A DNA stretch of 64,000 nt, taken from an uncultured Pseudomonadota bacterium. Lineage in GTDB: Bacteria; Pseudomonadota; Alphaproteobacteria; JACZXZ01. The notes under the pieces are model-generated. The model did not search any database, was not told the DNA's origin, and saw only the letters and a program-made list of their open reading frames with translations. This document shows positions 3,701 to 37,419 of this stretch, in pieces. The translations under genes and the position numbers were made by a program. The stretch's first letter is position 1. Every line of letters begins with the position of its first letter. The stretch spans positions 128,001-192,000 of the forward strand of contig CAVVLJ010000021.1 of NCBI GenBank assembly GCA_963749075.1, written 5' to 3'.

Positions 3701-4288
3701 CTAGAGCCGCCCCTTGGTCGAGGGCACGGCATCGGCCTGGCGCGGGTCGATGGTCACGGCCTCGCGCAGCGCGCGCGCCAGGCCCTTGAAGCACGACTCG
3801 ACGATGTGATGGCTGTTGTCGCCGTAGAGGTTCTCGATATGGAGGGTGACGCCGGCGTGCTGCGCGAAGGCCTGGAACCACTCCTTGAAGAGCTCGGTGT
3901 CGAAGTCGCCGAGCTTCTGGCGCGTGAAGGCCACCTTCCAGATGAGATAGGGCCGGTTGGAGGCATCGAGCGCCACGCGGGTGAGCGTCTCGTCCATGGG
4001 GATGAGCGCCGAGCCGTAGCGCTTGATGCCCTTGCGCTCGCCGAGCGCCTGGGCCACCGCCTGGCCGATGACGATGCCGGTATCCTCGGTCGTGTGGTGG
4101 TAGTCGATGTGGAGGTCGCCCTTGGCGGCGAGCTTGAGGTCGATCAGGCTGTGGCGGGAGAGCTGCTCGAGCATGTGGTCGAGGAAGCCGATCCCGCTCT
4201 TCACCTCGTAGCGGCCGCTGCCGTCGAGATCGACGGTGACCGCGATCTCGGTCTCGCGCGTCTTGCGCTCGATGGTCGCCTGGCGCAT
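3701..4288 (-). CDS. hisB: Imidazoleglycerol-phosphate dehydratase
   Basis: [34 protein letters not shown]. Confidence 0.97.
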
Positions 4289-4439: not shown

Positions 4440-5255
4440 ATGGCCATGGCCGAGCGCCGCTACGCGCCCGGTGACGTGATCTACCAGGAGGGCGACAAGA
4501 GCGATTTCGCCTATTTCATCCGCCGCGGGCGGGTCGAGATCCTCAAGAACGAGGGCGGCCGGCACAACCAGATCACCGTCCTCGGCGAGGGCGAGGTCTT
4601 CGGCGAGATGGGCGTCATCCTCGACCAGCGCCGCTCGGTGACGGCACGGGCGCTCGACCGCGTGGACGTGCGCGCCATCAGCCGCGCGAGCTTCCTCCAT
4701 GCCGTCAACCAGCAGCCCGACATGGCGCGGCCGGTCCTGAAGACGCTGCTCTCGCGCCTCCACGCCGAGGAGGAGGAGCAGGGCGCCACGGTGACGTCTC
4801 TCGCCGGTGCCGAGGACGGCGAGGAGAGCGAGGCGGGCGAGGCGGACGGCGGGGACCCCCCGGCGGCACCGCGCGGCGGCCGCATCCGCCTCCTGCCGGG
4901 GAGCGAATATCTCGAGCAGCTCATGCGCTCGGGTGGCGTCGACGTGACCGAGCTTCCCTTCCGCGTCGGGCGCAACTCGGTCAAGGGCGAGCCGCCGCCG
5001 ACCGAGGACAACGACCTCACCTTCGAGGATTTCAAGCCCTTCAACCTCTCGCGCCGCCACTTCGCCATCGAGCAGAGCCGCCGCGGCCTCATCGTGCGCG
5101 ACTGCGGCAGCCACCTGGGCACGGTGGTGAACGGCGTGCGCATCGGCGGCAAGGCGGGCGTCAACGTCGCCATCCTGCAAGGCGGCGACAACGAGATCGT
5201 CGCCGGCACCGACAAATCGCCCTACCGCTTCATGGTGCAAATCGTGGCCGAGTGA
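4440..5255 (+). CDS. Cyclic-nucleotide-binding domain + acidic linker + FHA domain protein
   Basis: cNMP motifs GEVFGEMG and RSVTARA; FHA motifs VGR, LSRRHF, GTVVNG; GGGGAGG RBS before ATG 4440/4446. Confidence 0.8.
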
Positions 5256-7696: not shown

Positions 7697-8929
7697 ATGG
7701 CGCAGGCTCGATCGACGGCGGGCGAAGCGGCCCCCTCGCGCATCGCGGCGCTGATTGCGGCGCGGGAGCCCGGACGCGGCCTCGCCGGCGCCTTCTATGA
7801 TGACCCCGAGATCTACGAGCGCGACCTCGCGCGCATCTTCCACCGCCACTGGCTCTGCGCCGGCCATGCCAGCGCTGCCGCGGCACCGGGCGACTATTTC
7901 CTCGCCAACGCCGGCGGCGAGGAGATCATCGTCGCCCGCGGCCGCGACGGCGAGCTCAATGCGCTTCTCAACGTCTGCCGCCACCGCGGCTCGCGCATTT
8001 GCAGCGTGCCGGCCGGTCATGCCGACTTCTTCGTCTGCCCCTACCACGCCTGGAGCTACGCGCTCGACGGCAGCCTCGCGGCGGCGCGGCACATGCCGCA
8101 AGGCTTCGATAGGACCGCGCACGGGCTCAAGCGGCTGCATCTCCGCGTGGCCGAGGGGCTCGTCTTCGTCTCCTTCGCAAGCACGCCGCTCGATTTCACG
8201 CCGGTTGCCGGCGCGCTCAGCGGTTCCTGCGGGCGCTACGGCTGGGCTGCGGCCAAGGTGGCGCACCGCGAGCGCTACGCCATCGCGGCCAACTGGAAGC
8301 TCGCCGTCGAGAACTATGTGGAATGCTACCATTGCAGCCCGGCGCATCCCGAGTATTCGCGCCTGCATGCCCTCGAGCAGCCGCTGCCGCGCATCGCCGC
8401 CCTCAATGCGCGCATGGCCGAGCGCACCGCGGCACTCGGCATCGCGGTGGCGGAGTGCCACCAGTGGCGCACCTCCGAGCGTGGCGCCGAGGCGATCGAC
8501 TGCTTCCGCTATGCGCTCTACGAAGGTGTCGCGACCGGCAGCCCCGACGGCCGGCCGGTGGCACCGCTCATGGGCGATTTCACCGGCTATGACGGGGGTG
8601 TGACCTCCGTGCACGTCGGAGGTGCGAGCTTCCTCCTCGCCTATCCCGATCACGGCGTCGTCTACCGCTTTGCGCCCAAGGGGCCGGATGCCGTTGAGAT
8701 GGAGCTCGTCTGGCTCGTGCGCGGCGATGCCCGGGAAGGCGTCGATTACGACAAGGAGCGCCTCGTCTGGCTCTGGCAGGTGACGAGCGAGGCGGACAAG
8801 CGCATCATCGAGCGCACGGCCGAGGGCGTACGCTCGCGCTTCTTCGAGCCGGGTCCGCTGGCACCCATGGAATACAACGAGCGCCGCTACATCGAGTGGT
8901 ATCTCGCGGAGATTTCCGGTCTTATGTAG
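7697..8929 (+). CDS. Rieske non-heme iron oxygenase alpha subunit (GbcA/choline monooxygenase-like)
   Basis: CRHRG...CPYHAW Rieske motif; ENYVECYHC...H iron ligands; the stop codon lies inside the element's left end. Confidence 0.9.
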   Translation: MAQARSTAGEAAPSRIAALIAAREPGRGLAGAFYDDPEIYERDLARIFHRHWLCAGHASAAAAPGDYFLANAGGEEIIVARGRDGELNALLNVCRHRGSRICSVPAGHADFFVCPYHAWSYALDGSLAAARHMPQGFDRTAHGLKRLHLRVAEGLVFVSFASTPLDFTPVAGALSGSCGRYGWAAAKVAHRERYAIAANWKLAVENYVECYHCSPAHPEYSRLHALEQPLPRIAALNARMAERTAALGIAVAECHQWRTSERGAEAIDCFRYALYEGVATGSPDGRPVAPLMGDFTGYDGGVTSVHVGGASFLLAYPDHGVVYRFAPKGPDAVEMELVWLVRGDAREGVDYDKERLVWLWQVTSEADKRIIERTAEGVRSRFFEPGPLAPMEYNERRYIEWYLAEISGLM

Positions 8930-9069
8930 CTGACGCACCGATTGACGGCTAATTATTGCGTATAACAAGAAAAACCCGCAATAAAACTGATAAATCCTTG
9001 AAGTAGCCAAAATTCGATCCCTTAATAATCCAGTCATCAAGCATTTTCCTTAAGCACAGGAGCGCTTGA

Positions 9070-9261
9070 ATGACTGACCTAGACCCCGATCTGGCATCCG
9101 CCTTCTGCGACGCTCATTTTGAGGGATCGGCAAAGAAGGTGATGCAGGGCGCCCTGCGCACGTTCATCAAGGATCAACTATCTAGGGATTTGGCGACGAA
9201 AGAGCGATCCGACGAGCTTCAGAAAAAGCGGAATGGCGGGAAGCCAGACGGCTCGAATTGA
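9070..9261 (+). CDS. Small hypothetical protein, ribbon-helix-helix-like
   Basis: 63 aa, AGGAG upstream, helical VMQGALRTFI segment; fold call is inference. Confidence 0.5.
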   Translation: MTDLDPDLASAFCDAHFEGSAKKVMQGALRTFIKDQLSRDLATKERSDELQKKRNGGKPDGSN

Positions 9262-9510
9262 CGGTATTCGGGCACAAATGGGACCAATCCCGAGTCGCAA
9301 TCATGCTCCTGTGTGGCAGTGCCACGATCATCGGCGAACGTGTTACGGGCGTCCTGCCTGTGCCAGGCCCTTAGGAAGGCAGCCGCTAAGCGATTCAAAC
9401 GACTCGGTTTTGTTATAGAAGGCGTCTACACTGCATCGAGTCGCTTGCCCGCTTGAGGCAGAGCGCTAATTCCTCTTGCTCCTTTGATTCCGAGAGAGTA
9501 GAGAGTTGTG

Positions 9511-9526
9511 TATCAATATCTTGTGG
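9511..9526. promoter_or_regulatory. NrdR-box-like site upstream of pyrE
   Basis: TATCAATATCTTGTGG versus consensus acaCwAtATaTwGtgt (core CwATATnTwGTG matches). Confidence 0.55.
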
Positions 9527-9608
9527 TTGGGATGGGCTCCACCGCATACCCCTGGGCGACCTCGTCACGATTAGTCAGGCCTTGGGTATAAAACCTAGGG
9601 AAACGCAC

Positions 9609-10190
9609 ATGGCTCAGGTCGCCAGTAAGCCCGCTCGATTCGATCAGGACGGCCGCCGTGAGCGTCTGCGTCATATCATCGCAGATATGTGCTTCACGAC
9701 GGGGCCGACATTCCGGCTCGCCTCGGGAAGGGAAAGCAATTTCTATTTCAATCTTAAAAAGGCGATGCTCGACCCCGAGGGGATTGAGTTGTTGGCTGAT
9801 CTCATATTGGAAGAGACCGCTGGCATTCGTGCCGACTATGTGGGCGGTCTCGCAATGGGGGCAGTCCCGGTCGTCGTCGCGGTAGTTATGAAAAGCCGCG
9901 GAGGAAACCGGCCGCTGAGAGGGTTCTGGGTTCGCAAAGAGGCCAAGGGCCACGGGACTAACGACTTGACGGACGGCCATATCGTTGACGGCTCGCGAGT
10001 TATCATCGTTGATGACGTGACGACCACGGGCGGCTCTATCAAGCAGGCGATAGAGGAGGTCAAAAGGCATAACTGCGAAATCGCCGCTGTCATAACGATC
10101 GTTGATCGATTGGAGGGCGCTAAGGAAGCCCTTGCTAAGGATGGCGTCGAGCTTATTGCGCTGTATGATACGAACGATTTCCTCCCCTAA
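9609..10190 (+). CDS. pyrE: Orotate phosphoribosyltransferase (element-borne)
   Basis: FRLASGRESNFY, VRKEAKGHG loop, PRPP motif IIVDDVTTTGGS. Confidence 0.9.
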   Translation: MAQVASKPARFDQDGRRERLRHIIADMCFTTGPTFRLASGRESNFYFNLKKAMLDPEGIELLADLILEETAGIRADYVGGLAMGAVPVVVAVVMKSRGGNRPLRGFWVRKEAKGHGTNDLTDGHIVDGSRVIIVDDVTTTGGSIKQAIEEVKRHNCEIAAVITIVDRLEGAKEALAKDGVELIALYDTNDFLP

Positions 10191-10244
10191 AGGTTCACCA
10201 GAGTTTGCGGGTTCCCCCTTAAAGGGAAACGGTGACTCGTGGGG

Positions 10245-10508
10245 ATGCATAGCGACGAGATCGCGGCAATAGCAACATTCGCCCTAGAGCACTCCACCGC
10301 TTATCCTGTCCTGTCCCTCGTGCTCCTCACCGTCGTTGATCGTATCGAAAACGAATACGACGGCGGCGCTATAACAGAAGATCGAGCGGCACAGCTTGAT
10401 GAGCTTGAACCGTTGATCCGAGCTGCCATGACAGCGCCCGGTGACTTTGCGAAGTTACAAACGATTTGCAGAAAATTTATGACGGTATTCGATATTGGCG
10501 CGCACTGA
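10245..10508 (+). CDS. Hypothetical helical protein
   Basis: 87-aa ORF directly after pyrE inside the element; no family recognised. Confidence 0.55.
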   Translation: MHSDEIAAIATFALEHSTAYPVLSLVLLTVVDRIENEYDGGAITEDRAAQLDELEPLIRAAMTAPGDFAKLQTICRKFMTVFDIGAH

Positions 10509-10611
10509 GGATCCGATTCTGGACCCCGGCTAGGTGCAAGACACCCACTCCGATGCCAAGGCCGGTCCCAATGAGAAACAGAATAATGGTGAGGTCGTCG
10601 CCTTGTGGCAT
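10477..10611 (-). CDS. 44-aa single-TM small protein or truncated membrane protein
   Basis: MPQGDDLTIILFLIGTGLGIGVGVLHLAGVQNRILSARQYRIPS; AGGGGG RBS-like run upstream; below the ORF-track cutoff. Confidence 0.4.
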   Translation of the reverse strand: MPQGDDLTIILFLIGTGLGIGVGVLHLAGVQNRILSARQYRIPS

Positions 10612-10716
10612 AGCGCTACCCCCTGAGCACGCCCCTTTTGTATAGCAGGAAATGATACCGAGAATGGTGAGTCAGCTACATAAGGCCGGAAATTTCCTGA
10701 GCGCTCCCGCGTCCGC

Positions 10717-32443: not shown

Positions 32444-32695
32444 ATGAAGATCAAGATCGACATCGACTGCACGCCGCTCGAGGCGCGGAGCTTCTTCGGC
32501 CTGCCCAACGTCGGCCCCATCCAGGCAGCACTCCTCGGCGACATGGAGCAGCGCATGCGCTCCGCACTCGCCACCATGGACCCCGAGGCCATGATGAAGA
32601 TGTGGCTGCCCGCGGGCATGCAGGGGCTCGAGCAGCTGCAGAAGTTCTTCTGGTCCCAGGGTGCCGGCGGCGGCCCGGAGCGCAAGGGGAAATAG
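32444..32695 (+). CDS. Small conserved protein (DUF6489-like)
   Basis: MKIKIDIDCTPLEARSFFGLP signature. Confidence 0.8.
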   Translation: MKIKIDIDCTPLEARSFFGLPNVGPIQAALLGDMEQRMRSALATMDPEAMMKMWLPAGMQGLEQLQKFFWSQGAGGGPERKGK

Positions 32696-32732
32696 CGCGC
32701 CAGGGGGGGATAGGCGGCGGGAGCGGGCCCGC

Positions 32733-34076
32733 ATGGCCGAGGAGCGGGATACCATCTTCGCCCTCTCGTCGGCGCCGGGACGCGCTGCGATCGCGGTCGT
32801 GCGGGTGAGCGGCCCGCGGGCCGGGGAGGCGCTGGTCCGCTTGCGCGGCGGCCGCAGCCTGCCCAAGCCGCGCGCGGCGGCCTACGCGCGCTTTCTCGAC
32901 CCCGCGAGCGGTGCGCCACTCGACGACGGCCTGGCCCTCTGGTTTCCGGCCCCTTCGAGCGAGACCGGCGAGGACGTGGCCGAGCTCCAGATCCACGGCG
33001 GCCGGGCGACCGTGGCGGGCGTCCTCGAGGCCCTCGCCAGGCTCCCCGGCTTCCGCCCGGCCGCGGCCGGCGAGTTCACCCGCCGCGCCTTCGAGAACGG
33101 CAAGCTCGACTTGACCGCGGTCGAGGGCCTTGCCGATCTGGTGGCGGCCGAGACCGAGGCTCAGCGCCTCCAGGCCCTGCGCCAGCTCCGCGGCGAGCTC
33201 GGCCGCCTCTACGAGGGCTGGCGCGAGCGGCTGCTCCGCCTCCTGGCCCACGGCGAGGCGGCGATCGATTTTCCCGACGAGAGTGCGGGGGAGGGGCTCG
33301 ATCGCGAGCGCTACGGCAAAGTCGCCCTGCTCGCCGGGGAGATAGCACAGCACCTCGCGGCACCGCGCCGCGGCGAGACCCTGCGCGACGGCCTCTCGCT
33401 CGCCATCCTGGGCGCCCCCAACGTGGGCAAGTCGAGCCTCATGAACGCGCTCGCCCGGCGCGACGTGGCGATCGTCTCGGAGCGCGCCGGCACCACGCGC
33501 GACGTGATCGAGGTGCATCTCGACCTCGCGGGCTACCCCGTGGTGCTGGCCAACACCGCGGGCCTGCGCGAGGCCCGCGACGAGATCGAGATGGAGGGCG
33601 TGCGCCGCGCGCGGGCGCGGGCGGAGCAGGCCAACCTGCGCATCGTCATGCTCGATGCCACGCAGTGGCCGGCGCTGCCGGCCGAGGTGGCGCCGCTCGT
33701 GGGCGAGGGCAGCCTCCTCGTCCTCAACAAGATCGACAAGCTGCGCCCGCCGCCGCCCCTCGAGATCGCGGGCCGCACGGTACTCGCCATCTCGGCGCTC
33801 ACCGGCGAGGGGATCGAGGAGCTGGTGCGGGCACTCGCGACGCTGGCCGCCGAGCGCATGGCGCTTCCCGAGGCACCCGCGCTCACCCGCCTCCGCCACC
33901 GCCAGGCCCTCGAGCGCTGCCGCGAGGCCCTTGAGCGCGCCCTCCGCGCCCCCTTGCCCGAGCTCGCCGTCGAGGACCTCCGCCTCGCCATGCGCGAGCT
34001 CGGCCGCATCACCGGCCGCGTCGACGTGGAGGACCTCCTCGACGTGATCTTTCGGGAGTTTTGTATTGGGAAGTAG
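32733..34076 (+). CDS. mnmE: tRNA modification GTPase
   Basis: TGED, GEFTRRAF, GAPNVGKSS, GTTRD, NKID, FCIGK; G3 motif reads NTAG instead of DTAG. Confidence 0.95.
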   Translation: MAEERDTIFALSSAPGRAAIAVVRVSGPRAGEALVRLRGGRSLPKPRAAAYARFLDPASGAPLDDGLALWFPAPSSETGEDVAELQIHGGRATVAGVLEALARLPGFRPAAAGEFTRRAFENGKLDLTAVEGLADLVAAETEAQRLQALRQLRGELGRLYEGWRERLLRLLAHGEAAIDFPDESAGEGLDRERYGKVALLAGEIAQHLAAPRRGETLRDGLSLAILGAPNVGKSSLMNALARRDVAIVSERAGTTRDVIEVHLDLAGYPVVLANTAGLREARDEIEMEGVRRARARAEQANLRIVMLDATQWPALPAEVAPLVGEGSLLVLNKIDKLRPPPPLEIAGRTVLAISALTGEGIEELVRALATLAAERMALPEAPALTRLRHRQALERCREALERALRAPLPELAVEDLRLAMRELGRITGRVDVEDLLDVIFREFCIGK

Positions 34077-34077
34077 G

Positions 34078-34100
34078 CGGTATTAGGTAGCAAACTCACC
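34078..34100 (+). mobile_element. Solo IS1595-family (ISNha5-like) terminal repeat opening the dcd cassette
   Basis: CGGTATTAGGTAGCAAACTCACC shares CGGnnTTAnGTAGCnnACnCACC with both ends of the 8917-10688 element; sits at the composition boundary; partner end not found. Confidence 0.75.
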
Positions 34101-34131
34101 TATCGTGAAAATTTGACCCTACAATAGAACA

Positions 34132-34686
34132 TTAAGGCGCGGCGGATTGCCCTTGAAACTGTCCGTACCCCTTTTCTGGAGTCCCGAAGGTCTGCTCAAA
34201 AATTAATTGGCAAATTCGCATACCTGGTTTTAGACGCACGGGCCGATGGCCATGGTTGACTATCTCCAGTCTTATTCGCCCTTCAAAGCCAGCATGTATC
34301 GTTGGGGCCGTCATGTGGATAGAAAGACCTATCCGCGCCAATGAGCTTCTCCCTTCAACTCGGGCCGCCAACCGAGATTCCTTTAGGTCGATGTACTCCT
34401 TCGTCCACGCAAGGATCATTGTGTGACGGGTCAATGGATAGCCGGCTTGCGGATCGATCGAAAAACTTGTTGTCAACTCCTTGACGACGACATCGCTTTT
34501 GAAATCAGCGTGTGTCGGGTCAATTATCATGTCGATCCCGGATGCAACCTCCTTGAAAAGGCTGATGTCGGGATCAAGCGTTAAGTCAATGCTCGACGAC
34601 TGGTACGCGACTTGCGGAGGGCGCGGCTCGACGGTTATCAGCCCCCGCTCAATGTAAATCTTGATTTCTCGATCCGTCAGGATCAC
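34132..34686 (-). CDS. dcd: dCTP deaminase (trimeric dUTPase fold)
   Basis: MILTDREI, SIDLTL, EGRSSLARIGL, GFEGRIRLEIVN, RICQLIFE. Confidence 0.9.
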   Translation of the reverse strand: MILTDREIKIYIERGLITVEPRPPQVAYQSSSIDLTLDPDISLFKEVASGIDMIIDPTHADFKSDVVVKELTTSFSIDPQAGYPLTRHTMILAWTKEYIDLKESRLAARVEGRSSLARIGLSIHMTAPTIHAGFEGRIRLEIVNHGHRPVRLKPGMRICQLIFEQTFGTPEKGYGQFQGQSAAP

Positions 34687-34940
34687 GCAGCAGCTTCCTC
34701 GACATCACTCCGGCGAACCCATATTCGCCAGCTTCCCCGAAGACTCTCGCGCGGCAATTCAACGAGAAGTTCGTCCGTTCCGCGAGCGCTGATTGGATAG
34801 CCTATCTTAACGCTATTGTCGGTTATTGACCGCCTGTCAACGATCAATTCTTCCGTTTTGCCATCCGCGGTGGTTACTGCGACCACCGCCTCACTCGGGT
34901 GCTGACCGTTACCAACGGTTCTGATTTTGAGTCGCGCCAT
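34683..34940 (-). CDS. Hypothetical beta-rich protein coupled to dcd
   Basis: 85 aa; GGGAGG upstream; stop overlaps the dcd GTG (GTGA); motifs HPSE, ELPRES, GSWRIWV. Confidence 0.75.
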   Translation of the reverse strand: MARLKIRTVGNGQHPSEAVVAVTTADGKTEELIVDRRSITDNSVKIGYPISARGTDELLVELPRESLRGSWRIWVRRSDVEEAAA

Positions 34941-35038
34941 GAGCTTAGCCCTCCCAGAACTTTTGCCGAACAAATTACCTGCGTTAGCCGAAAAAGGCGA
35001 CTCGGAATCCGATGCCCTTGTGTCTGGTCAACGCCGAT

Positions 35039-35054
35039 ACACTATATTTTGTGT
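35039..35054. promoter_or_regulatory. NrdR-box-like site upstream of the orf85-dcd operon
   Basis: ACACTATATTTTGTGT, 15/16 match to acaCwAtATaTwGtgt. Confidence 0.7.
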
Positions 35055-35139
35055 GCGAGCGCCGCCTATCGTCAACACAATTGTCGCATCGTTTTCACCT
35101 TATTTGTCATGATGACGATCTGCTAATGTCCTCAATGGG

Positions 35140-35415
35140 ATGGCTCGAAAAAATAATCGTATTCCGACAAAAACGACGACAATTACCCTAGCCTGGCCGC
35201 TATATGCGTACCTTGATAGGGCGATTGTTTTGGGGCGATATGGCGCAACACTGACCTCGGCCGCGGAGGTCGCCATTGATAAACACATTGGGTGGCTGAT
35301 CTCGGCTGGCAAAATTACGGAGTTGACCGCAGCCGAATTAGCCGCGCCGCCGTCATCGGATTATGTGCGAAAAAAGCGGAAGCCACGAACCAAGAAAACC
35401 GCCGCTTCCAGTTAG
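35140..35415 (+). CDS. Small hypothetical protein, ribbon-helix-helix-like, basic tail
   Basis: Beta-like TTTITL then helices LYAYLDRAIV and LTSAAEVAI; divergent from orf85-dcd; fold is inference. Confidence 0.6.
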   Translation: MARKNNRIPTKTTTITLAWPLYAYLDRAIVLGRYGATLTSAAEVAIDKHIGWLISAGKITELTAAELAAPPSSDYVRKKRKPRTKKTAASS

Positions 35416-35452
35416 AACGATCTTCCGCGGAGTTTCGTTCGAGACGCGCCGC

Positions 35453-35726
35453 CTATGGTGCCCTTAACCGCCACTTCCCCGGCCACGAGTCGCGGTCATA
35501 CCAGACGATAGGATTTCTCTGCCGCGAGAAACTGCTGCGGATCGTGTCGGCGAGCATCTCCACCGCAACCGGATCGGTATTCCTCTCCACGCTGACTAGG
35601 ATGCGCCTAGCGAACTCCTGGGCTGATAGAGCTTCGCCGCTCTCCCGTAGTATGTCGAAGTATGTCGAGCGCCTTGCGGCTTCCGGTGCCCTTGGGAAGG
35701 CCGGCCGGGTTCTTTCCGAATATCAC
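35453..35726 (-). pseudogene. Frameshifted winged-helix-like ORF
   Basis: Removing one copy of AGTATGTCGA x2 (35649-35668) gives VIFGKNPAGLPKGTGSRKALDILRESGEALSAQEFARRIL...SWPGKWRLRAP*; in-frame TAG at 35733-35735 just upstream. Confidence 0.6.
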
Positions 35727-35791
35727 TTTGGGCTAAATTTCTCGATATTATCGCGCAAACGCCACCAAGCCGAATTCACACTAGATCCCTG

Positions 35792-35965
35792 TCAACGCTC
35801 CTCGCGCCGTTTTTGCGCGGGCGGGGCACGGCCCTGCAACTGCGCTCTGGCCTCTTTTATCAATTCTTTCAGTACCTTGCGAACGCGCGGATCAGGCTGC
35901 TTGCGCAACAGCCTCGCCCAGCGTTGCAGGTCCTTCTGCAACGCGGCCCTATCCTCCTGTCCCAT
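35792..35965 (-). CDS. Small basic helical hypothetical protein
   Basis: 57 aa MGQEDRAALQKDLQRWARLL...; GAGG upstream. Confidence 0.5.
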   Translation of the reverse strand: MGQEDRAALQKDLQRWARLLRKQPDPRVRKVLKELIKEARAQLQGRAPPAQKRREER

Positions 35966-36171
35966 GCGGGCACCTCGCACGATTGGCGGGCGTCTCTGCC
36001 TCGTTGCATACGATCGTATTGGAGCGAGGAGGATTTCTCAAGAGCTTCGGCAGGCGGGGATCAAGCAGCTCCGGGCCCCGCTTCCGAGCTAGGGGATGCA
36101 CACGGATCCAAAGATCACCGGTAAATCATGTATCGCGCTTTGCAAAAGGTGCTTTGGACCGGCTGCGGTGC

Positions 36172-36283
36172 GTCCTTCGAGACGCTCGCTGCGCTCGCTC
36201 CTCAGGATGAGTTAAGGCCTTTCTGCCACGCACGGATTTACCTCGTCCTGAGGAGCGCCCCGAAGGGGCGCGTCTCGAAGGAC
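36172..36283. repeat. REP-like inverted pair (GTCCTTCGAGACGC...CCTCAGGATGAG / CTCGTCCTGAGG...GCGTCTCGAAGGAC)
   Basis: Two ~40-bp inverted units (36172-36211, 36242-36283) with a 30-bp spacer, each with an internal hairpin. Confidence 0.85.
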
Positions 36284-36337
36284 CCAGGGCGGCGGTGCAG
36301 GCGTTCTTGAGATGTGTGAATACCGTAGCGCTTCTGC

Positions 36338-36349
36338 GGGGGGGGGGGG
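36338..36349. repeat. G12 homopolymer
   Basis: 12 consecutive G upstream of the FNR box. Confidence 0.85.
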
Positions 36350-36412
36350 TGACGCGCGAGGCGGTTCGAGCCGATCGAATTACGCTTTAAGGGCCCGGCC
36401 GCAGCGCGACCG

Positions 36413-36426
36413 TTGATGTGAATCAA
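36413..36426. promoter_or_regulatory. FNR/FixK box
   Basis: Perfect TTGAT-GTGA-ATCAA (extends to CGTTGAT...ATCAACG) about 70 nt before nfnA. Confidence 0.9.
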
Positions 36427-36495
36427 CGCGCGATGCGTTTCATAGGGTTAAGAGCAGCGGCAGCCCCAAGGCCCTACGAGATCATGAGGCCCGAC

Positions 36496-37419
36496 ATGGA
36501 TCATGCGGAAGGCGGCAGCGGCGGCTTCGAGATCGTCCGCCGCGAGGACTTCTCGGACGTGACCTACCTCCTCGAGGTTCGCCATCCCTTGATGGCGAAA
36601 GCGGCCAAGCCCGGGCAGTTCGTCATCGTCATGTCGCATGAGGAGGGCGAACGCATCCCTCTCACCATCGCCGACTTCGACCGCGACAAGGGGATGGTCA
36701 CCCTGGTCATCCAGGCGGTCGGCAAGACGACGAGAGAGATGCAGCAGACGTGCAAGGCCGGGACCGCGCTTTACGCCCTCGTGGGTCCCATGGGCGTGCC
36801 GAGCGCCACGGGCGGCGCCAAGAAGGTCCTCTGCGTCGGCGGGGGGCTCGGCGTGGCGCCGGTCTTTCCCCAGGCGCGCGGCTTCAAGGAGAGCGGCGCC
36901 TACGTCATCGGCGTCCTCGGGTTCCGCACCAAGGGGCTCGTCTTCTGGGAGGAGAAATTCGCCGCCTGCTGCGACGAGCTGATCCTCTGCACCGACGACG
37001 GCTCGGCCGGCGTCAAGGGCTTCGTCAGCGACGGCATGCGGCTCGCCATCGCGAAGCATCCCGACATCGACGAGGCGATCGTCATCGGCCCGCCCGTCAT
37101 GATGAGGGCGTGCGTCGAGGTGACGCGTGCCAAAGCGATCAAGACGTTCGTCAGCCTCAATCCCATCATGGTCGACGGAACGGGGATGTGCGGCGGCTGC
37201 CGCGTCAAGGTGGGCGAGCAGGTCAAGTTCGCCTGCGTCGACGGCCCCGACTTCGACGGTCACAAGGTCGATTTCGACGATCTGATGATGCGCCTCAAGC
37301 GCTACGCCGAGGAGGAGAAGGCGGCCATGGAGCGCTGGTCGGAGGCCTGCCGCATGAGGAGCCTGGCCGGTGCGGCCCCGCTCGCGTCGCGGCTGCCCGA
37401 GCCGAGCGCACGGAGCTGA
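36496..37419 (+). CDS. NfnA/SudB-type ferredoxin-NADP reductase small subunit
   Basis: PGQFV, ERIPLT, GGGLGVAP, DGTGMCGGCR, CVDGP. Confidence 0.9.
   Translation: MDHAEGGSGGFEIVRREDFSDVTYLLEVRHPLMAKAAKPGQFVIVMSHEEGERIPLTIADFDRDKGMVTLVIQAVGKTTREMQQTCKAGTALYALVGPMGVPSATGGAKKVLCVGGGLGVAPVFPQARGFKESGAYVIGVLGFRTKGLVFWEEKFAACCDELILCTDDGSAGVKGFVSDGMRLAIAKHPDIDEAIVIGPPVMMRACVEVTRAKAIKTFVSLNPIMVDGTGMCGGCRVKVGEQVKFACVDGPDFDGHKVDFDDLMMRLKRYAEEEKAAMERWSEACRMRSLAGAAPLASRLPEPSARS

Follow-up and report, generated by a model that had tools for sequence, protein, structure and literature searches.

A probable right-truncated IS1595-family transporter element behind mnmE carries an orf85-dcd operon in an uncultured alphaproteobacterium

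This study concerns a low-GC island that carries a dCTP deaminase gene (dcd) in a 64,000-nt stretch of DNA (the window) from an uncultured Pseudomonadota bacterium (Alphaproteobacteria; JACZXZ01; contig CAVVLJ010000021.1, positions 128,001 to 192,000). The insert spans 34079-~35740 (~1.66 kb), starting right behind the stop codon of mnmE. Taken as a whole, including the way in which its genes would work, it is probably an IS1595 'transporter' insertion sequence (IS) that has been truncated on the right, a sister of a pyrE cassette in the same window, with a module of deoxynucleoside triphosphate (dNTP) metabolism as cargo. An IS1595-type origin had been guessed in a previous reading of the letters alone (the sequence-only reading), and because a full-length relative exists in the same genus, this family assignment was confirmed as far as sequence comparison reaches. 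We propose that the element inserted immediately behind the mnmE stop and that its left 1.66 kb remains, with the left repeat, the passenger operon orf85-dcd and a small gene, orf91, intact, and a winged helix-turn-helix (wHTH) gene damaged. As the transposase gene and the right repeat are lost and the genome holds no cognate transposase, the element would now be immobile. Transcription of the operon would start at a promoter that overlaps an NrdR-type box, through which the dNTP-sensing repressor NrdR of the host may gate the operon together with ribonucleotide reductase (RNR). Dcd would turn dCTP into dUTP (or dUMP), feeding dTTP synthesis, and orf85 may bind Dcd as a regulatory or stabilising partner.

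Coordinates are those of the window unless a contig is named. G000 denotes the host genome (5.49 Mb), with contigs C2, C4, C17, C20 and C23; G001-G005 are same-genus genomes (congeners), and G003:C177 is the G003 contig that carries an intact IS1595-family element. L-numbers refer to extracted loci and P-numbers to homologous proteins. The GC content of the window is ~69%; it drops to 0.52-0.54 at 34001-35500, compared with 0.75 upstream and 0.67 downstream, and a second low-GC patch lies at 8500-10700. Every part that the sequence-only reading had listed was found in its place. The features are as follows:

32661..34076, plus strand: mnmE, tRNA modification GTPase (Pfam MnmE_helical 169.5 bits, TrmE_N 123.3 bits), native left flank
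34079..34100: left terminal inverted repeat GGTATTAGGTAGCAAACTCACC, 22 bp, 3 nt past the mnmE stop, unique in the window
34132..34686, minus strand: dcd, short form, 184 amino acids (aa), intact, 3' end facing the left repeat
34683..34940, minus strand: orf85, 85 aa, directly upstream of dcd, unannotated family
35039..35054: NrdR-type box ACACTATATTTTGTGT, 16 bp, ~100 nt upstream of orf85
35046..35075, minus strand: promoter-like site from a consensus scan (TTGACG, 18-nt spacer, CAAAAT), facing orf85-dcd
35140..35415, plus strand: orf91, small divergent gene, candidate ribbon-helix-helix (RHH)-like accessory gene of the IS lineage
35453..~35745, minus strand: remnant of a wHTH-type accessory gene, frameshifted, N-terminal codons gone
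35650..35659 and 35660..35669: 10-bp tandem duplication GTATGTCGAA / GTATGTCGAG, which shifts the wHTH frame
35744..35766: native flank motif GATATTATCGCGCAAACGCCACC, from the alignment with G005, G003 and G002
35792..35980, minus strand: orf62, native flank, outside the element
8918..10687: pyrE cassette, the sister element, without transposase; ends at 8918-8939 (plus) and 10666-10687 (minus)

Comparison of the left end with the intact element at G003:C177:4153-8895 linked the island to the IS1595 family. The inverted ends of this element (4153-4174 and 8874-8895) lie 4.7 kb apart; it splits a membrane-protein gene, is flanked by the 9-bp direct repeat GCTTTTGCA and encodes a transposase of 333 aa matching NF033547 (129.1 bits, cut-off 75), PF12762 (116.7) and PF12760 (43.5). 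Its left repeat is identical to GGTATTAGGTAGCAAACTCACC at 19 of 22 positions. Each end of the pyrE cassette agrees with GGTATTAGGTAGCAAACTCACC at 17/22, so that the solo end is indeed related to the pyrE ends and not identical with them. The pyrE-cassette ends match each other at 20/22 and the right repeat of the G003:C177 element at 19/22 and 21/22. When a degenerate pattern made from three ends (up to 3 mismatches) was run over 11 genomes of the order, hits were confined to G000 (the three sites already known), G003 (five sites) and G005 (one site). With ends alike at 17/22 and with cargo and site both different, the proposal that the two islands are sister elements that inserted independently held up. 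Within the pyrE cassette the pyrE-like gene scores 139.9 bits against TIGR00336 (cut-off 106.8), and the flanking repeat GGAGATTTCC/GGAAATTTCC, of 8-10 bp since a palindrome makes its length ambiguous, restores the native gene end found in congeners. At the pyrE-cassette site (window 8930-10690; L037-L039) the gap between a Rieske-type oxygenase gene and a helix-turn-helix (HTH) gene is variable: G002, G003 and G005 have 1.3-2.7 kb of other DNA there instead. The oxygenase ends in ...EIA and a stop in congeners; the G000 gene terminates within the cassette end.

Several other sources of the end were considered and set aside. The host's own IS1595 copies (C2, C17) have no island-type ends in their surroundings. 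IS1-like ends share merely the core GTAG..TGACTCA with the island end, with indels, and the IS1595 relative is far closer. By eye, neither the CATAA-N6-TTATG core of Xer/dif-like sites nor an attC-type structure of integron-like sites was present. A 15-nt inverted pair in L026 sits in a high-GC host gene and was judged a chance match. In a scan of 33900-36500 against Rfam there was no match at E<=0.1.

The functions that would move the element could not be found in the island. Across 34079-35745 there was no open reading frame (ORF) with a DDE transposase domain and zinc ribbon (PF12762 + PF12760; NF033547), and the G003:C177 transposase, used as a tblastn query against the host genome, matched only C2 and C17, at ~30% identity, neither a cognate transposase. 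The best inverted-orientation match to the five known ends in 34101-36600 was 13/22, which is chance level: when the region was shuffled 200 times, the best match was at least 13/22 in 199 cases. These results agree with the sequence-only reading in that right end and transposase are missing and mobility functions have eroded, the wHTH gene being both truncated and frameshifted.

The wHTH remnant gave a further connection to the lineage. A frame without a start runs on the minus strand from 35722 down to 35456 and has two homologues, P0122 and P0123 (58-59% identity, each 144 aa); a second frame, from a GTG at 35726, supplies the preceding 22 residues. The frame switch coincides with the 10-bp tandem duplication, and both frames align to homologues; this is the frameshifted gene of the sequence-only reading. 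About 50-55 N-terminal codons are missing, and homology ends at ~35733-35745, where the native flank resumes. An apparent N-terminal extension into 35750-35881 was treated as a BLAST extension artefact because it contains two stops, overlaps orf62 and is weak. Along its whole length P0122 shows homology (E 2e-17) with a 155-aa ORF of the G003:C177 element, located directly downstream of the IS1595 transposase gene and overlapping it, and another remnant of the family lies in G003 beside the decayed transposase behind mnmE. By sequence homology, then, the wHTH remnant belongs to a lineage-specific accessory gene family that adjoins the IS1595 transposase. The divergent gene orf91 had been called RHH-like. 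The ORF itself is there, at the position that a 73-aa ORF takes in the G003:C177 element; the RHH label did not stand in the same way, since the match between the two is weak (E 0.003, 29% over 38 aa), orf91 has a sole homologue in 5.8 billion proteins (84% identity) and no match in Pfam, NCBIfam, PHROGs or PADLOC. The RHH-like label is thus still a guess, and orf91 is a possible accessory gene of the IS lineage.

The site of insertion was then compared among congeners. The 3' end of mnmE is conserved across same-genus genomes, and a search of 30 related genomes returned, among the matches listed, none that falls in window 34096-36053. In G002-G005 (4/4 congeners resolved, G001 left out) the mnmE stop is directly followed by a motif of the type GCGGTATTATGGCGCAAGCGCC. 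Its counterpart in G000 lies at 35744-35766, on the other side of the island, and the alignment to the G005 flank runs on from there; a homologue of orf62 is found directly behind mnmE in G005 (tblastn 36% over 55 aa, E 4.6e-7). In direct orientation the native motif matches the element end at 14/22 in G000, which is within chance alone, and at 16/22 in G005. Decayed transposases of the IS1595 lineage occur behind mnmE in G001, G003 and G005. The G003 insert is a 2-kb decayed element of this lineage whose right repeat is good; beyond it the mnmE tail and motif occur a second time, in diverged form. From this we infer that one IS1595 lineage inserted repeatedly behind mnmE and that older ends stayed in place. 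Transposase gene, right repeat and target duplication would have been lost from G000 through a deletion that formed the right junction.

The DNA behind mnmE differs in every congener (L005 of G004, L011 of G005 and L006 of G002 were read). In G004 a perfect 30-nt hairpin is followed by what was taken by eye for a toxin-antitoxin pair of PIN/AbrB type; small Flp-pilin-like genes are present in G005 and G002; an mnmG-like gene lies 1.8 kb further on in G005 and is not adjacent in G000. In the window, a dispersed repeat of ~290 bp, part of it palindromic, occupies 36054-36370; G000 contains at least 9 further copies, and the five congeners many, at 80-87% identity.

The cargo proved to be a recurrent gene pair. 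We read 15 orf85 loci: 2 in G000, 8 in a species-genome collection, 1 on an IMG/VR contig, 2 in further genomes of the class and 2 on megaplasmids (2/5 matching rhizobial megaplasmids). In 14 of the 15, dcd directly follows orf85. Ends of IS1595 or IS1-like type, or transposase remnants, were present at 7/14 pair loci, so that the outcome which the sequence-only reading had named as refuting its proposal, no association with IS1595 ends or mobile regions, did not arise; two more pair loci (L019 and L023) have a degenerate end-like sequence beside dcd. Four of the 14 pair loci are complete IS1-like elements or cassettes, each with a 6-bp target duplication (4/4):

L018: CGATTC
L020: CGAACC
L022: GCAGGC
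L024: GCCCTT

In L018 and L020 the pair forms a low-GC cassette of 1.04-1.08 kb with inverted repeats of GGGTAGTGACTCAGTTTGAAAT type at its borders, next to the direct repeats; in L022 and L024 repeats of the same type bound elements of 3.4-4.0 kb that include a transposase, which is IS1-like (PF03400 29.7 bits, cut-off 24.1; NF033558 71 bits, below the cut-off of 100). L021 holds a fragment of an IS1-like transposase and an end. On the IMG/VR contig an IS1595 transposase remnant lies directly upstream of orf85, 56%/45% identical to that of G003:C177. IS1-like and IS1595-type ends have the core GTAG..TGACTCA in common, and the two families are regarded as related, to judge from the title of Siguier, Gagnevin & Chandler 2009, as cited in PMC3129680. 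Lineages with proteins at 42-65% identity share gene order, gene overlap and the box upstream. As read from these sequences, the orf85-dcd pair is an old, horizontally moving module that was repeatedly acquired by IS1-like/IS1595 elements and their transposase-less derivatives; many soil bacteria have it within mobile elements.

Some carriers bring other passengers. Besides orf85-dcd, L021, L022 and L024 contain genes for P63C-domain proteins (82.9 and 94.7 bits) and a protein with HTH and IrrE/M78 peptidase, and also a conserved protein of 77-79 aa (MPKGPQGQKRPAD...) divergent from orf85. Other low-GC elements of G000 have IS1-like ends of the GGTAGTGGGT.AGTTTGA type (C20:239493-243500, C4:460914-462898 and C17:1151575). 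The transposase of the first is IS1-like, apparently intact and 56% identical to that of the orf85-dcd carrier in L022; the second is a two-ended element of 1,985 bp with merely a transposase fragment inside.

The enzyme gene of the pair is well defined. Dcd scores 131.6 bits against TIGR02274 (cut-off 92.8; model positions 1-172 of 180) and 124.4 bits against the Pfam family DCD (PF22769). Residues 2-176 can be aligned to E. coli Dcd (1xs1) at E 6.9e-20. Both GRSSLAR and LE are kept as motifs, with columns invariant in 7/7 cassette Dcds; we take the catalytic Ser, Arg and Glu to be residues 111, 115 and 138 in E. coli numbering. By these matches dcd is predicted to encode a canonical short dCTP deaminase with intact catalytic motifs. 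It starts with GTG, the stop of orf85 overlaps it by 4 nt (GTGA) and a ribosome-binding site, GGGAGGG, precedes its start, an arrangement that points to translational coupling of the two genes. The sequence-only reading was thus right to describe an intact dcd operon that faces the IS end. It had also asked about another dcd in the host, and G000 does have one, a two-lobed dcd-like gene of the long form (463-aa frame, C17), and further a dut-like match; because the host has this gene of its own, the orf85-dcd module can be considered accessory. A second orf85-dcd pair occurs in the same genome at G000:C23:72414-73204 (L015 1238-2031), with proteins 50% and 42% identical. It adjoins a fragment of an IS5-like transposase and, by eye, a methyltransferase fragment; a search for inverted repeats of any kind around it found none convincing.

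The partner protein is less familiar. We collected 135 homologues of orf85, 46-149 aa long; neither a name nor a Pfam family is attached to any of them, and in a library clustered at 50% the family comprises 462 representatives at E<=1e-3; in the ESM Atlas it matched 'hypothetical protein' clusters only. A search of 50,697 phage records gave no match, and among 401 genomes sampled from the class orf85 was detected in just 3. The AlphaFold2 model (predicted local distance difference test, pLDDT, 95; predicted template modelling score, pTM, 0.81) is an all-beta small barrel. Foldseek found no match to it at E<=0.001, and the best VIA-align hit, a chromodomain, had Z 4.9 (root-mean-square deviation 3.1 over 53 residues), followed by many SH3, Tudor, KOW and PsaE rows at Z ~4, which are generic. 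We therefore describe orf85, on its predicted structure, as a putative SH3-like small beta-barrel of an unannotated family. Pfam searches with eight longer members of the family disclosed no informative fusion. P0241 (1,972 aa) has 16 stretches that match the orf85 profile and P0124 and P0126 have two each, with uninformative Pfam results; as these proteins carry multiple stretches, the barrel may also occur as a repeat unit.

Structure prediction placed the two proteins in contact. The orf85-Dcd complex, for which our own alignments were supplied, scored 0.57, compared with 0.01 for the best control, with contact agreement of at least 82% between runs and partner pLDDT of at least 88. Of 157 solved complexes 116 pass the mark applied to this score, and of 215 mismatched pairs 2 do. 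These predictions lend weak support to binding of Dcd by orf85, which is plausible.

Concerning regulation, PMC13584703 names C4, A6, A8, T9, T11 and G13 as highly conserved positions and describes functional sites as two 16-bp boxes 15-16 bp apart. The box at 35039-35054 has 6/6 of these positions. It matches an assumed 16-mer consensus at 15/16 and is the sole 16-mer of the 5.49-Mb genome above 13/16 (9 reach at least 13/16); 718 16-mers of the genome have all six key positions. A box is found at -46 to -50 in 7/8 related loci, and the C23 copy has two, with 5/6 positions each, 32 bp apart start to start. The -10 hexamer of the promoter-like site 35046-35075 lies within the box; two such sites were found and 1.1 expected, a yield not above chance. 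The host genome encodes NrdR (178 bits, cut-off 124.65). In the literature on NrdR together with dCTP deaminase, none of the papers among the matches listed mentions dCTP deaminase. Taken together, the sequence evidence makes NrdR control of orf85-dcd plausible. Tandem NrdR-like boxes at C20:4483/4513 (4483-4528; 13/16 each, 30 bp apart) were tried as a calibration of the motif and discarded, the gene downstream being no RNR; it encodes a low-complexity protein of 545 aa with a hydrophobic N-terminal stretch.

The sequence-only reading had further suggested selection on the cargo. Where dN/dS could be computed it was 0.05-0.21 for dcd (4/28 pairs) and 0.09-0.60 for orf85 (14/21 pairs), synonymous sites being saturated in most pairs. 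This shows long-term constraint on the orf85-dcd family, not on the dcd-island copy. The latter displays one internal disabling lesion and one terminal deletion, and we estimated from the target sizes given by the coordinates that a random single lesion would strike the wHTH remnant and not the three intact genes about 1 time in 5. With a single internal lesion, the sparing of the cargo in this copy is statistically uninformative, so that selection on it, as suggested, does not follow from this copy.

The island was compared with systems already described. Transporter ISs, mobile insertion cassettes (MICs) as well as solo inverted repeats are defined in PMC3129680, according to which a MIC lacks a transposase and has its passenger genes set between two IS ends. 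The dcd island resembles IS1595 transporter ISs in its near-identical terminal repeat, in having an accessory gene of the same transposase-adjacent family and in the passengers between end and core genes; it differs from them in that it has one end and no transposase and that the passenger is a nucleotide-metabolism operon. Target duplications of the IS1595 family are typically 8 bp, whereas the relative in G003:C177 shows 9 bp. The pyrE island and the L018/L020 cassettes fit the definition of a MIC, of which MIC231 is an example, with two inverted ends, flanking direct repeats and no transposase. Because the dcd island has one end only, it is to be regarded as a truncated transporter IS and not as a MIC, and the term cassette, given to it in the sequence-only reading, suits the pyrE island and not this one-ended element. 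As to the enzyme, the cassette Dcd aligns over its full length, with motifs conserved, to the homotrimeric Dcd (E. coli 1xs1; TIGR02274) and to the bifunctional dCTP deaminase-dUTPases (1ogh, 2qxx); unlike the genes of these, cassette dcd is preceded by a small beta-barrel gene and lies on mobile DNA that is low in GC relative to its hosts. The box has features that PMC13584703 gives for the NrdR operators of RNR operons, being a partially palindromic 16-mer with six conserved positions that overlaps a promoter-like -10, and the C23 copy with two boxes 32 bp apart is also alike; the difference is that the island box stands upstream of dcd, in an operon that mobile DNA carries, and that its second box is degenerate. 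The landing place is the same as that of the integrative elements of SGI1 type at trmE/mnmE, with variable content in every congener, but the dcd island has no integrase and instead the ends and accessory gene of a DDE-transposase element.

A number of observations weigh against the explanation we favour. The right junction shows no clean IS end, and the native motif at 35744-35766 has, in direct orientation, a likeness to the element end for which a simple history of transposition and deletion has no need; with the right end missing, the island also shows no readable target duplication. One orf85 homologue stands alone without dcd (L054, G300:C168, 1486-1764), between infC and rpmI/rplT as named by eye from translations. 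The two rhizobial plasmid copies of orf85-dcd have no IS end, transposase remnant or good box, and neither IS1-like or IS1595-type ends nor transposase remnants were found at C23, L025 and L053, of which C23 alone was also searched for inverted repeats of other kinds. The dcd copies of L019, L021 and L023 look interrupted, through decay or assembly error, these being metagenome-assembled genomes. At the canonical linker of 15-16 bp (31-32 bp on) the partner box is poor, with 2/6 key positions; the NrdR box of the sequence-only reading thus holds as a single good box (6/6) and not as one of a good pair. No good box was found upstream of the two RNR genes of the host (best 11/16 at one, none reaching 11/16 at the other), and for this reason the host's own NrdR motif is uncalibrated. 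As for the complex, passing scores of up to 0.60 came from just 18 of the 157 solved complexes and from both passing mismatches; passes in the range of 0.57 are more often wrong than right, absent prior likelihood.

Three other explanations were weighed against this background. Under one of them the cargo is a neutral hitch-hiker, intact because little time has passed since insertion, which we regard as unlikely. The single internal lesion and terminal deletion leave the sparing of orf85-dcd unremarkable by target size, the interrupted dcd copies of L019, L021 and L023 would be expected, and the host owns another dcd-like gene; however, dN/dS lies well below 1 across the family wherever computable, gene order, overlap and box have survived between lineages at 42-65% protein identity, and G000 itself retains a further, diverged copy that is intact. 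It is quite unlikely that orf85-dcd is instead a conflict module, in which Dcd would deplete dCTP as a toxin or an effector of abortive infection, with orf85 as its protein antidote or sensor, stabilising the element or protecting from phage. A small upstream gene with a 4-nt overlap with the enzyme gene is the layout of an antitoxin-toxin pair, adjacency is strict (14/15 loci) on carriers that are IS elements and megaplasmids, and the spread is very patchy (3/401 class genomes); the predicted orf85-Dcd contact (0.57, best control 0.01) gives this weak support. Nucleotide depletion by dCTP deaminases is reportedly a defence principle (Tal et al. 2022 are said to have described it). On the other hand, known defence dCTP deaminases have a different fold from Dcd, which itself passes the cut-off of a housekeeping equivalog; dcd, orf85 and orf91 have no PADLOC family match at E<=0.1, orf85 has no recognisable DNA-binding domain, and an NrdR-type box suits dNTP supply better than infection sensing. 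Nor were defence genes adjacent in the loci read; the sequence-only reading had advised a look for defence islands there.

We consider it very improbable that the island entered by site-specific recombination at an att-like site and has no integrase of its own, with the imperfect direct repeats of ~24 nt at 34077-34100 and 35742-35766 as attL and attR. Direct copies of the post-mnmE motif do lie at both borders, the motif occurs in 4/4 congeners resolved, the G003 insert is also followed by a second, diverged mnmE tail and motif, and integrative elements of other bacteria (SGI1 type) classically attach at the mnmE/trmE 3' end. Yet at 19/22 positions the left copy agrees with the terminal repeat of a genuine IS1595 element found elsewhere, inside a membrane-protein gene and with a 9-bp duplication, the right copy matches the island end at merely 14/22, within chance for the scan, the truncated accessory gene of the IS lineage runs into the right junction, and no ORF of the island matches a tyrosine or serine recombinase family. 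A right-truncated IS1595 transporter element accordingly remains our preferred explanation. Beyond it lies a bolder idea, to which we assign a decidedly low likelihood: orf85-Dcd would be an unrecognised two-protein nucleotide-pool device, carried by IS1/IS1595 elements for their own benefit, in which the SH3-like protein would act as brake or sensor on Dcd and the whole would be wired to NrdR, the universal dNTP repressor of the host. Such a device might cause addiction or abortive infection, draining dCTP once the brake is lost, or it might serve AT-richer mobile DNA by shifting the dCTP/dTTP balance of high-GC hosts.

For annotation, these results mean that the region is to be read as a decayed mobile element and not as a native operon, and one IS1595 lineage appears to have landed again and again in the space behind mnmE in this genus. 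The analysis also brought to the surface a conserved pair, an unannotated 85-residue protein predicted to be a beta-barrel and a short dCTP deaminase, spread by two related IS families and rhizobial megaplasmids. In the literature on dCTP deaminase with anti-phage, insertion sequence or toxin-antitoxin themes, no such pair appeared among the matches listed, judged by title or abstract, and no described protein partner of Dcd was found in the literature searched on these themes and on NrdR. We know of no protein partner of a Dcd, and orf85 would be the first if it regulates Dcd and NrdR gates the operon. Should regulation by orf85 and gating by NrdR prove untrue, the island would be an ordinary IS remnant. 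The part worth following is the orf85-dcd module itself, which is more interesting than the IS remnant: if orf85 regulates Dcd and NrdR gates the operon, this would be a case of mobile DNA plugging into the dNTP control of its host.

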